Source: Promethearchaeota archaeon
Lineage (GTDB): Archaea > Asgardarchaeota > Odinarchaeia > Odinarchaeales > JBHLKK01
NCBI GenBank assembly: GCA_048939465.1
Contig: JBHLPL010000115.1
Span: 1 to 6,017 of the forward strand
Reading direction: 5' to 3'
Length of the DNA stretch: 6,017 bases
Numbering within the stretch: position 1 is the first letter of the stretch; each line of letters begins with the position of its first letter. The position numbers were made by a program, and so were the translations under genes. Positions 868 to 6,017 of this stretch are shown here, piece after piece. Below the pieces are notes generated by a model. That model did not search any database, was not told the origin of the DNA, and saw nothing but the letters and a program-made list of their open reading frames with translations.

Positions 868-1461
868 TCACTTGCTTTCAGATGATGTGTTTAGGCGGCT
901 CTTTACCTCTTTCTCAAGCTTCTCAAACTCCTTCAGCTTGTCAGATAGGATAAGTTCGAATAATCGACCGATATCACTCTCTCCACTCTTCTCATCAAAC
1001 TGGGTGATCTTCTTGAAGTATTCACTTCTCTTGCGCACACTCCCCGATGTTGCTTTGAGTCTATCAAAGACCTTCATCAGAGGAACAATGCGACTGTCAA
1101 CTATTTCTGATTCACGCATCAGGCTGTCAACGTAGCGTTCAAATTCCGGAATTAGGAATATCCTTATTCTATCTTTCACTTCTTTTACACTTTCAGACTC
1201 TTCAGCAGAAGTCTCTAAGTGCCACAGCAAGGACCTGGCCGCAGTTAGAAGAAGCAGTATTTCACTGAGCCAGTTTTTCAGAGAGTTTAGAGCCTCTTCA
1301 ATACGTTTGGACGCCTTATCGGCCTTGGCCATACGCTCCTTTAGATTCTTTCCATCCACGATGAAAGGGAAGACGTTGAAAAGCCGTTGTGTGAATGTCT
1401 CCAGTATCTCTCTAAGCTTTTTTAGGGCGTCTATATACTTCTCCAAGGTCGGTCTCCCCAA
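868..1461 (-). CDS. Hypothetical all-alpha-helical / coiled-coil-like protein, 197 aa
   Basis: Long ORF rich in E/K/L with heptad-like stretches (LKKLREILETF, LKEFEKLEKEVKSRL). TTG start preceded by GGGAGTAGG. Same strand as its neighbours with no overlap. No family motif recognised. Confidence 0.75.
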   Translation of the reverse strand: MGRPTLEKYIDALKKLREILETFTQRLFNVFPFIVDGKNLKERMAKADKASKRIEEALNSLKNWLSEILLLLTAARSLLWHLETSAEESESVKEVKDRIRIFLIPEFERYVDSLMRESEIVDSRIVPLMKVFDRLKATSGSVRKRSEYFKKITQFDEKSGESDIGRLFELILSDKLKEFEKLEKEVKSRLNTSSESK

Positions 1462-3911: not shown

Positions 3912-3935
3912 ACCAACTCTGGAGTTTTATTCTTT
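3905..3935 (+). terminator. Possible terminator after fae-hps (imperfect hairpin plus T-rich tract)
   Basis: AGAATAA...AACT-CTGG-AGTT-TTATTCT can pair with a 3-nt bulge, and overlaps the T-rich TTTTATTCTTT (3925-3935) just after the stop codon. Confidence 0.35.
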
Positions 3936-4039
3936 GGGGAATATATCAAACAGCATATTCTTATAGTGAAAAGACCTCAGGTGTTAGTGCCTGATTTCAC
4001 ATAATCAATAATCCGAGGAATGATGGTTCCGAAAACAAG

Positions 4040-4055
4040 TAGATTTATTTATCTA
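4040..4055 (+). promoter_or_regulatory. Candidate TATA (TTTATTTA) of the p25/p62-like unit, framed by TAGAT-N6-ATCTA
   Basis: AT-rich box about 40 nt upstream of TTG 4091, preceded by A-rich GAAAACAAG. The inverted 5-bp arms are visible. Confidence 0.4.
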
Positions 4056-4090
4056 TTTGCGTTGAATAGCTTTTCCGGAGTGTTTGGATA

Positions 4091-4630
4091 TTGTGTCCTG
4101 TTTTGAAACATAGAGGTGTAGAACCGCAGATTCATGAGAGCGTATACGTAGATGAACTTGCAAGAATAATAGGTGACGTGAGAATAGGTAAGCACTCGTA
4201 TATTGGCCCAGGCGCAACAATAAGAGGCGATCTGGGAAGGGTGACCATAGGAAACTACGTAGTCATCCAAGACAATGCTATAGTCTATCCGCCAGAGGTC
4301 TTTCTTGACGGCAGCCTAAGCCATGAAAGTATAATAATCGGAAACTATGTCTTAATTGGAAAAGGGGCGGTGATTCAGGGGACCTATATTGGAGATTATT
4401 GCTTTGTGGGAAACAATGCTGTGGTAGAACGTGAGTCACAACTTAATCGAGGAGACGTTATTCTGCCTGGTTCAGTAGTCCCAAATAAGGCCATAGTTCC
4501 ACCAGAATCCGTCATGGTGGGTAATCCAGCCAATTTGCTAAGGAAGTTGAGTCACGGAGAACAGGAAAGACACGGGGAATTTATTGAAGCGTATATTCGA
4601 TTTGCAGAGACCTTTGAGAAAACTAAATAG
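4091..4630 (+). CDS. Left-handed beta-helix protein of the gamma-carbonic anhydrase superfamily lacking Zn ligands; dynactin p25 (DCTN5)-like, 179 aa
   Basis: Hexapeptide repeats, gamma-CA-type PQIHES..IIGDV.IG, RGD, IQD, GNPA and a C-terminal helix. The three His ligand positions read Y66, K91 and Q96. RGDL-x18-PP and the downstream turns match p25 spacing. TTG start with GGAG 10 nt upstream. The LbH fold is high confidence and the p25 relationship moderate. Confidence 0.8.
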   Translation: MCPVLKHRGVEPQIHESVYVDELARIIGDVRIGKHSYIGPGATIRGDLGRVTIGNYVVIQDNAIVYPPEVFLDGSLSHESIIIGNYVLIGKGAVIQGTYIGDYCFVGNNAVVERESQLNRGDVILPGSVVPNKAIVPPESVMVGNPANLLRKLSHGEQERHGEFIEAYIRFAETFEKTK

Positions 4631-4640
4631 GTGGGAACTA

Positions 4641-5759
4641 TTGCCCGTAGAATACATTTGCTCTCGGTGTGGAGAATTCAAATCTGGATTCCACAGCTTT
4701 TTCTGCTTGCCCTGCCAGGAAGTTGTTTGTGAGAAATGTGCGCATAAAGTACCCATAAGCTACAAATGCTACCGATGCGGTTGGACGACGGATGTCCAGA
4801 CTGCCAGAGAGTACTTTACGGAATGTCCAAACTGTTTCAAATGTCCCGTCTGCAACAGCGACCTACAGATGGAGACTGGAGAGAAATACTTCCTCCGCTG
4901 TCCGTTTTGCGGATGGGATTCCAAAACGACTAGCCTTAGAATAGAGGGGTCGTCGGAAGAAGAAGTCAGAGGGCGGGCCAGAAAGGAGTTACATCAAGAA
5001 CGCCTGTTCGAGGCAGTCAAGCTTTATTGTGATAAGTGCGGTGAAAGCTTAGTTCATCCTAGGCAAGATATATCTACCTTGATTGCAAATGTCTTTCCAC
5101 GATTTGTTTTTTACACAGTAGCCATCAGACAAGGACAGCGAACAGAAATACCGTACACCGTTAGGAATCCCAGACCAGAAGGATGTGAAATACGGTTTGA
5201 TTGGTACACTGACACACCCTGTGAGATTGAGCCATATACCAAGGGAGTTGACTTTGATTTTCACTCTCCCTACATAAACACCCCCAAGAAGGGTGAATTG
5301 ATAATCAACGCAAAAGAGAGAGGCGAGATGTATTTGATGGCGGATTTGTCTTACAAGTTCGATGAGATATACTTCGGCATAGGCAGAACCAAGGTTCGGG
5401 TAGGACCGATTTTTGTGTGCCCCAATATAGAGGTGAGACGTGAGGTACAATCTCCCATAAAGCGGGACGGGATGAACACAGTTAAGGTCATCATTGCAAA
5501 TAAATCAGATCAAACAGTCACTCAGGCAATAATATCAGATATGATTCTGGAAGGCGTGGAGGACATGAAGCGCAAATTCTGGGAAGTCAGGAGTTTGAAG
5601 CCGGATGATGAGAGAGCTTTTGAATATGCGTTTACACCGGCAGAGGATGCTAAGTACCTTAGATTTGATGGATTGAGATCCAAAGTAAGATTCAAGAGAT
5701 TTGCACCCCAAAAATTCTTTGATTTTGTATCCAAACTTCTTACAGTGGATATGGACTAG
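4641..5759 (+). CDS. Dynactin p62 (DCTN4)-like zinc-binding protein with an additional C-terminal Ig-like domain, about 372 aa
   Basis: Eight CxxC pairs (C7/10, 22/25, 30/33, 43/46, 62/65, 68/71, 87/90, 130/133), including FFCxxC, CxNCFxCPxC, YxLxCxFCxWxS and LxCxKCxxxLxxP, in the order and spacing of p62. These are followed by a beta-sandwich (..TVRNP..GE..VGP) and a second beta-rich domain. Start placed at TTG 4641 (SD AGGTGG at 4629-4634) instead of 4584. Confidence 0.82.
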   Translation: MPVEYICSRCGEFKSGFHSFFCLPCQEVVCEKCAHKVPISYKCYRCGWTTDVQTAREYFTECPNCFKCPVCNSDLQMETGEKYFLRCPFCGWDSKTTSLRIEGSSEEEVRGRARKELHQERLFEAVKLYCDKCGESLVHPRQDISTLIANVFPRFVFYTVAIRQGQRTEIPYTVRNPRPEGCEIRFDWYTDTPCEIEPYTKGVDFDFHSPYINTPKKGELIINAKERGEMYLMADLSYKFDEIYFGIGRTKVRVGPIFVCPNIEVRREVQSPIKRDGMNTVKVIIANKSDQTVTQAIISDMILEGVEDMKRKFWEVRSLKPDDERAFEYAFTPAEDAKYLRFDGLRSKVRFKRFAPQKFFDFVSKLLTVDMD

Positions 5760-5789: not shown

Positions 5790-6017
5790 ATGAGTGAACC
5801 CGGAGCTGTTATCTTCGACCTCGATGGGACTCTGGTGTGGTTTAAGATAGATTATATGAGTGCAAGAAAGGAGGCTATCGAACGGCTCAGAGAACATAAC
5901 ATAGATGCTAGATTCCTGTCAACTACTGAGCCTATCTTCACAACCTTAGGGAGAGCATTTGATTATCTCAGGAAACAAGGAGCAAGAAAAGAGGAGCTTG
6001 ATAGAATAAGAGAGGCA
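5790..6017 (+). CDS. HAD-superfamily hydrolase (phosphoglycolate phosphatase-like), 5' part only
   Basis: ATG 5790 after GAGGA. It translates as MSEPGAVIFDLDGTLVWFKIDY..., containing HAD motif I (hhhDxDGT). The frame is open to the window end. Confidence 0.88.
   Translation, partial: MSEPGAVIFDLDGTLVWFKIDYMSARKEAIERLREHNIDARFLSTTEPIFTTLGRAFDYLRKQGARKEELDRIREA

Follow-up and report, generated by a model that had tools for sequence, protein, structure and literature searches.

An Asgard archaeal homologue of dynactin p62 encoded directly downstream of a beta-helix gene

In the pointed-end complex of eukaryotic dynactin, the p62 subunit (DCTN4) works with enzymatically dead beta-helices, p25 and p27 (DCTN5 and DCTN6), and the beta-sandwich of p62 contacts Arp11/actin. 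To our knowledge, dynactin is regarded as eukaryote-only, and the Odinarchaeia have actin and tubulin. Here we describe two adjacent genes, which we call A and B, on a 6,017-nucleotide (nt) contig from a 1.96-Mb Asgard genome bin (91% complete); this entire contig is referred to below as the window. We found that gene B encodes a genuine homologue of dynactin p62, as confirmed by sequence profiles, by profile-profile comparison and by the structure predicted for its product. Gene A, directly upstream, encodes a left-handed beta-helix of the gamma-carbonic anhydrase (gamma-CA) family that by its sequence is non-catalytic.

In the papers that we searched, the link between Asgard archaea and dynactin comes down to one line of a supplementary table. 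Supplementary file 7 of Eme et al. (2023, Nature; PMC10307638) lists a 'putative dynactin p62 family' (cluster S1SH2070019254, 2 proteins, arCOG07221) that is present in the Odin column only, and arCOG07221 is assigned there both to this family and to a 'steadiness box (putative ESCRT-I)' cluster. Because each genome of the Odin order has one such gene, this cluster is almost certainly the same family as gene B. The entry is confined to the table, where no beta-helix partner is listed, and the main text does not analyse it; unlike that Odin-only cluster, the family described here also occurs outside the Odin order, in family f33. Our literature search returned no main-text description of an archaeal or Asgard dynactin p62, the supplements of a 2026 structure-based paper on eukaryotic signature proteins lying outside that search, and no paper on the pairing of p62-like and beta-helix genes. 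A first-pass annotation of the window, which had likened A to p25 and B to p62, had pointed to published lists of Asgard eukaryotic signature proteins as a check. The answer is divided: the p62 likeness of B is not wholly new, and the pairing with a beta-helix gene was not found in the literature. Public records label these proteins as hypothetical.

Gene B and dynactin p62

Searches with the single sequence of gene B gave only a faint signal. Its match to the Pfam model Dynactin_p62 (PF05502) covers residues 19 to 100 and scores 13.9 bits (E 0.023), its match to DCTN4 in PDB has an E-value of 1.7, and a search of NCBIfam returned no match. A phmmer search of 1.84 billion representative proteins yielded 44 matches. 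Those beyond the Asgard orthologues are of eukaryotic length, and Dynactin_p62 was present in 28 of the 34 that were scanned (best E 2.8e-51); the gene of one match has formin genes around it on a eukaryotic scaffold. When we instead used a profile built from 10 Asgard orthologues of B, DCTN4 came first in PDB with an E-value of 7e-9, leading the next match, a zinc ribbon at 0.023, by six orders of magnitude. Comparing this profile with 16 eukaryotic p62 proteins in hhalign gave a probability of 99.5% and an E-value of 2.9e-22, with 34% identity over 97 columns. All Asgard sequences of the set share the same sixteen cysteines, which form eight CxxC pairs, and in the joint alignment with eukaryotic p62 most cysteines are invariant or nearly so, together with a CxxCxW.S motif.

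The predicted structure points the same way. In a Foldseek search of PDB with the AlphaFold2 (AF2) model of gene B (predicted local distance difference test, pLDDT, 89.9), the top four matches were p62 chains of dynactin structures (E 6.7e-14, template modelling (TM) scores 0.57/0.59), while the next family reached a TM score of only 0.25. Against the Swiss-Prot models of AFDB, the best five matches were all DCTN4. Using VIA-align, residues 1 to 261 of the model were superposed onto residues 8 to 460 of p62 with a Z-score of 15.3 and a root-mean-square deviation of 2.5 Å over 248 aligned residues. Because the alignment maps these ranges onto one another, gene B would, as modelled, hold the whole resolved core of p62 minus the long eukaryotic insert. 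Its cysteine-rich domain probably has four zinc sites. Residues 262 to 372, a second immunoglobulin (Ig)-like sandwich that is kept in all B orthologues, lie outside the p62 superposition and align separately to TRAP-beta-like and transglutaminase C-terminal Ig domains (Z approximately 11).

Compared directly, DCTN4 (PF05502; 6ZNL chain Y, 9B7J chain K) and B share the cysteine pattern of the zinc domain with its CxxCxW(D/T)S motif, a further CxxC pair ahead of the beta-sandwich, and the superposable core. They differ in length, at approximately 460 amino acids for DCTN4 and 372 for B. A long and largely unresolved insert separates the zinc domain from the sandwich in DCTN4 and is missing from B, whereas the extra C-terminal Ig-like domain of B is missing from DCTN4. 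Unlike DCTN4, B is encoded in what looks like a translationally coupled operon, and no Arp1 or Arp11 was found in its genome.

Two results weigh against reading B as p62. The gathering cut-off of PF05502 (25.3 bits) is not reached by B, nor by its orthologues, which score 8.9 to 18.4 bits. In addition, the significant sequence signal is limited to the zinc domain, and for the rest of the protein the likeness relies on predicted structure. The sub-threshold Pfam match would also be expected if the likenesses were chance matches of cysteine-rich and repeat-rich proteins, since zinc ribbons and hexapeptide repeats often cross-match, or if the window were eukaryotic contamination. We give this explanation almost no credence. 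The profile, profile-profile and structural matches lie orders of magnitude above those to any other family and contradict it. The flanking genes in the window are archaeal by Pfam (a nitroreductase, methenyl-tetrahydromethanopterin (H4MPT) cyclohydrolase (Mch), Fae-Hps and a HAD phosphatase), with Mch and Fae-Hps telling against contamination, and the same synteny is found in closed Asgard genomes. The first-pass annotation had named a chimeric or eukaryote-derived contig as a possible source of error. The contig is neither, because other Asgard genomes, single-contig ones included, have the two genes arranged in this way, and the stretch recurs in mangrove and sediment metagenome runs of several studies. 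The argument of that annotation that two dynactin likenesses side by side were unlikely to be chance holds in part: that of B is far above chance, and that of A is real yet unspecific.

Linkage and distribution across Asgard genomes

We surveyed 400 Asgard genomes by profile searches with A-type and B-type profiles. Orthologues of B were found in nine: all three genomes of the window's genus, all four of a sister family in the same order, whose genome records are named Odinarchaeia or Odinarchaeota, and two of one further family (f33). The gene is full-length in eight of these, and in the ninth (G299) the contig ends within it. Scores of the A-type profile are bimodal, with values of at least 295 bits only in the eight genomes that have B in full length, followed by one score of 166 bits and then by values of at most 146. 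In other words, A-type genes and full-length B genes occur only together and adjacent, in eight genomes of three families. At all eight loci A lies directly upstream of B on the same strand and the spacer is short (10 to 35 nt); the outer neighbours vary between lineages. The first-pass annotation had asked whether the two genes are neighbours in related genomes, and they are so in every one that has either. A HAD-IA phosphatase gene, cut off in the window and full-length at related loci, follows B throughout the Odin order, overlapping it by 4 nt in L004, and is missing in the third family, where L012 has a GNAT gene downstream of B instead.

Some features of these loci are specific to one lineage. 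In all four genomes of the sister family (L004:3586-5351; L018, L019 and L022), the pair is directly preceded by three or four Roadblock/LC7 genes, and one gene of this cluster also matches MAPKK1_Int (LAMTOR3-like). The cluster is absent upstream of the pair in the window, where Fae-Hps is found instead. Taxonomic labels at these loci are not uniform. The nearest named records (L017/L021) carry the submitter label 'Candidatus Hodarchaeota archaeon', and the genome collection places the window's genus in an order with metagenome-assembled genomes of Odinarchaeota. Proteins of the third family, too, are labelled Hodarchaeota or 'Asgard group'. The labels and the kinship given by the collection therefore disagree.

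In a tree of the zinc domain, the Asgard sequences (support 97/89) and the eukaryotic sequences (96/86) form separate clades, and B is not nested within the eukaryotes. This topology argues that the Asgard B genes were not recently acquired from a modern eukaryote. The two clades are joined to the exclusion of other Asgard zinc-domain proteins, although the support for this grouping is weak (91/52). The narrow distribution of B, with nine orthologues among 400 genomes and eight of them full-length, is a point against the structural-module reading of the pair given below. Such a patchy occurrence, spread over three families, would also be expected if the genes had passed horizontally, long ago, from a stem or early eukaryote into Odin-like lineages, in which case the pair would carry little information on the archaeal ancestor of eukaryotes. 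We regard such a transfer as very improbable. The Asgard sequences form a clade of their own outside the sampled eukaryotes, and their B proteins are compact, lacking the eukaryotic insert, carrying an extra domain and encoded in a coupled operon of prokaryotic style. The zinc domain also has more distant paralogues, and these are widespread in Asgard archaea. Finally, A is nearer to archaeal gamma-CAs than to DCTN5, the opposite of what joint transfer of the two genes would lead one to expect.

Distant relatives of B occur in other surroundings. A 495-amino-acid full-length relative in a genome of family f28 (G307, L072:2823-7093; 24% identity, E 8e-17) has extra zinc ribbons at both ends. 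Its gene comes first in a series of co-oriented genes that includes an EAP30/Vps36-family gene and a zinc-ribbon-bearing SPFH/Band-7 gene, and no beta-helix gene was seen beside it in that stretch. A second group consists of Asgard proteins of approximately 650 to 800 amino acids (L035:1480-3426, L030-L040 and L049), in which an N-terminal zinc domain matching the p62-like profile (E 1e-6 to 1e-9) is followed by winged-helix/PCI/EAP30-like domains. These are probably the 'steadiness box (putative ESCRT-I)' cluster of arCOG07221 in Eme et al. (2023). The arCOG07221 zinc-ribbon proteins share with B a p62-like N-terminal zinc domain, and the f28 relatives of approximately 500 amino acids share its whole architecture, including both beta-sandwiches. 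Unlike B, both groups have other C-terminal domains or extra zinc ribbons, ESCRT-like neighbours and no adjoining beta-helix gene, and their zinc domains score below eukaryotic p62 against the Odin-type profile.

That these relatives adjoin genes like those of the endosomal sorting complexes required for transport (ESCRT) speaks against a dynactin-like role for the pair. Under a different explanation, A and B would be a structural module of a membrane-remodelling, ESCRT or ubiquitin-like sorting system, and dynactin would have recruited p62 to actin-related filaments only later. The zinc domain that B has in common with the Asgard winged-helix/PCI/EAP30-like proteins of about 800 residues, the double assignment of arCOG07221 and the co-oriented genes beside the f28 relative all favour it. 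We nevertheless judge it quite unlikely. No ESCRT gene adjoins the Odin-type pair, and the zinc-domain tree places the Odin type with eukaryotic p62, if only with the support given above. Moreover, the structural match to p62 extends over the beta-sandwich, which is the part that contacts Arp11/actin in dynactin.

Gene A, its lost metal site and the p25/p27 family

Gene A matches Hexapep in Pfam with 72 bits and the DCTN5 model PF21711 with 58.7 bits against a cut-off of 40. Every A orthologue tested exceeds this cut-off (46 to 59 bits), and other Asgard gamma-CA-like proteins score 21 to 29 bits. At the three positions of the zinc-ligand histidines of gamma-CA, gene A has Y66, K91 and Q96. 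The lysine and glutamine at the second and third positions are invariant in 10 A orthologues, while the first is tyrosine in nine of them and histidine in one. Given the loss of the zinc ligands, A would not be a carbonic anhydrase. Carbonic anhydrase function is likely covered elsewhere in the host genome, since an ordinary gamma-CA-type paralogue is present (contig C20:3167-3637; L007:1486-2007), which keeps all three histidines and lacks the 8-residue loop that follows the first ligand position in A and its orthologues.

The best match of A by both sequence and structure is 6SC4, a CamH-type gamma-CA with an acidic loop from a Red Sea brine-pool organism (PMC7199487). It has the same length as A and the loop at the same position. 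In the pairwise alignment 6SC4 keeps the three histidines, whereas the A orthologues have lysine and glutamine, and in nine of ten cases tyrosine. Because of these replacements A is not expected to bind a catalytic metal. The AF2 model of A (pLDDT 79) matches 6sc4 in Foldseek with a TM score of 0.82, and the 50 best PDB matches listed were all of gamma-CA type, with no dynactin chain among them. This listing means that gamma-CAs rank higher, and says nothing about whether the p25 fold differs.

DCTN5 and DCTN6 (PF21711) resemble A in being non-enzymatic left-handed beta-helices with a C-terminal helix. DCTN5 aligns with A over 142 residues with zero net indel, including a loop of the same length. 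As the partner by synteny of a p62 homologue, A parallels DCTN5 and DCTN6, but these are two paralogues, whereas A is a single gene and nearer to gamma-CAs than to DCTN5. In a PDB search with a short query, DCTN5 ranked tenth.

Several of our results count against a specific relationship of A to p25. The PF21711 model is unspecific: among 14 control genomes of ordinary prokaryotes, 4 gave matches to it, once above the cut-off, and it matches 11 to 19% of the members of some bacterial gamma-CA clusters. Searched against PDB as a single sequence, gene A scores 105 bits with the gamma-CA 6sc4 (E 3e-29) and 55 bits with DCTN5 (E 7e-14); with the A-type profile the top gamma-CA scores 125 bits, DCTN5 80 and DCTN6 50. 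The nearest neighbours of A in a protein language model are bacterial gamma-CA clusters. We considered the loop as a signature of p25 and rejected it, as the true gamma-CA 6sc4 carries it too. Another genome (G309, 80% complete) encodes a loop-bearing K/Q beta-helix (L055:2001-2552; 166 bits with the A profile, 51 bits with PF21711) in which the first histidine is retained; this gene has no p62-like neighbour, and a search of the genome gave no match to B. At the same time, gene A scores only 87 bits against the NCBIfam gamma-CA model, far under its cut-off of 250.

From 15 ordinary Asgard gamma-CA-like proteins we built a control profile, which scored 66 bits with DCTN5 and 200 bits with the top gamma-CA. 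Set against the corresponding 80 and 125 bits of the A-type profile, these values are modest evidence that the A lineage is shifted towards DCTN5 relative to its ordinary Asgard relatives. Orthology of A and p25 is plausible from these comparisons. The p25 likeness put forward in the first-pass annotation therefore survives as a beta-helix that passes the PF21711 cut-off and has lost its zinc ligands, and not as a closer kinship in sequence, which is with gamma-CAs rather than with DCTN5 or DCTN6.

The same results allow an explanation in which B is a p62 homologue but A is a degenerate protein of the gamma-CA family with a role of its own, for example one related to small molecules or acyl-CoA together with the downstream HAD phosphatase, its likeness to p25/p27 existing at the level of the superfamily only. 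The closeness of A to gamma-CAs in sequence and language-model features, the unspecific PF21711, the phosphatase gene that follows B throughout the Odin order with its 4-nt overlap in L004, and the K/Q-type relative without B would all fit. We think this unlikely, since all three catalytic zinc ligands are gone in A and, among the 400 genomes, the A type is found only beside B at a distance of 10 to 35 nt, whereas the third family has no HAD neighbour. In dynactin, eukaryotic p62 works with exactly such a dead beta-helix.

Features of the locus and a possible role for the pair

The coordinates of the pair and of its surroundings are collected in Table 1. The layout described in the first-pass annotation proved exact: two genes on one strand, the stop of A ending at 4630 and the TTG of B at 4641, a Shine-Dalgarno-like site of B that overlaps the stop of A, and a 179-nt upstream gap with a TATA-like box.

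Table 1. Features of the A-B locus and its surroundings in the window
Feature	Position	Strand	Description and basis
Predicted coiled-coil protein gene	868-1461	-	197 amino acids; no family match
Gap upstream of gene A	3912-4090		179 nt, after the Fae-Hps gene
GGTTC-GAAAACAAG-TAGATTTATTTA block	4025-4051	+	Putative archaeal promoter; sequence, conservation
Purine-rich GAAAACAAG	4031-4039	+	Like a transcription factor B recognition element (BRE); part of putative promoter block
TATA-like TTTATTTA	4044-4051	+	Approximately 40-47 nt 5' of gene A start
GGAGTG	4077-4082	+	Putative Shine-Dalgarno-like site of gene A; 9-14 nt before TTG; sequence
Gene A	4091-4630	+	TTG start 4091, TAG stop 4628-4630; 179 amino acids
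AGGTGGG	4629-4635	+	Shine-Dalgarno-like site for gene B; overlaps gene A stop codon; sequence
A-B spacer	4631-4640		10 nt
Gene B	4641-5759	+	TTG start 4641, TAG stop 5757-5759; 372 amino acids
Gene B residues 1-105	4641-4955	+	Cys-rich zinc domain; 7 CxxC pairs, CxxCGWDS; homologous to p62 N-terminal zinc domain
Gene B residues 106-261	4956-5423	+	Helix, eighth CxxC pair (C130/C133), first beta-sandwich; VIA-align, Foldseek
Gene B residues 262-372 and stop	5424-5759	+	Second Ig-like beta-sandwich; no eukaryotic p62 counterpart
HAD-IA phosphatase gene, 5' part	5790-6017	+	Pfam; runs off contig; 30 nt after gene B

The overlap of the AGGTGGG site with the stop codon of A makes translational coupling of A and B likely. 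Upstream of A, the segment GAAAACAAG-TAG-ATTTATTTA (4031-4051) is retained in the 80%-identical relative L002, and the other sequence of the spacer has diverged. Because the block was kept while its surroundings changed, it is a candidate BRE/TATA promoter, and its form fits an archaeal one. Translation of gene A could start at either of two in-frame TTG codons, 4091 and 4103; the N-termini of orthologues favour the former, although one public protein record uses the latter. For gene B we rejected a longer reading from TTG 4584, as all of 8 homologues begin with MPVEY/MTVKY at the position of 4641. Relative to a genome 79 to 81% identical, the ratio of nonsynonymous to synonymous substitution rates (dN/dS) is 0.065 for A and 0.087 for B at a dS of approximately 1.3, which is near saturation; these ratios point to strong purifying selection on both genes. 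Look-ups of sequencing runs showed no RNA run among those that hold the A-B pair or gene B alone. The predicted coiled-coil protein of the window, with only weak Rad50/SMC-like noise in searches, is kept at the equivalent place in the relative (L002:2218-2796).

Taken with the analysis above, we are inclined to read A and B as a two-gene structural module of archaea that is related to the part of the dynactin pointed end formed by p62 and p25/p27, and hold this to be rather probable though well short of certain. On this reading, the genes would be co-transcribed and translationally coupled, and their products would assemble into a non-enzymatic structural module in which B is a four-zinc scaffold with two sandwiches and the metal-free beta-helix A is bound to it. 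Strict synteny, the only indication of physical binding, suggests that the two proteins may bind one another. A complex prediction for B (alignment A3) with A (alignment A5), run without controls, gave a score of 0.01 and a mark of 0.32, which counts neither for nor against binding. The module would probably dock on the host's single actin, or on another filament or a cargo. A single actin gene and three tubulin/FtsZ genes are present in the genome, which makes actin the obvious candidate for a partner, and the pair may act on it. A point on the other side is that no second Pfam Actin match and no Arp were found in the host genome, which leaves no evident Arp1/Arp11 partner.

A bolder version of the structural-module reading seems doubtful to us. 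Here A and B would be the surviving archaeal core of the pointed end, with B straddling the pointed end of an Asgard actin and A docking as a platform for cargo or adaptors. If this were true, a filament-end 'cargo adaptor' would be older than the last eukaryotic common ancestor and older than both Arp1 and dynein. Duplication of an A-like gene would then have given rise to p25 and p27.

An archaeal p62 homologue strictly paired with a dead beta-helix is a concrete, clonable two-protein system, and it allows testing whether filament-end or cargo-adaptor complexes preceded eukaryotes. The zinc-domain tree is compatible with a pair that predates dynein-dynactin. The pair would also suggest an origin for p25 and p27, which may descend specifically from the A lineage, in a gamma-carbonic anhydrase with the loop whose metal site was lost. 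Should the pair turn out to have no contact with actin, p62 would instead have been recruited from another archaeal system. Part of the dynactin pointed-end complex probably has archaeal roots.

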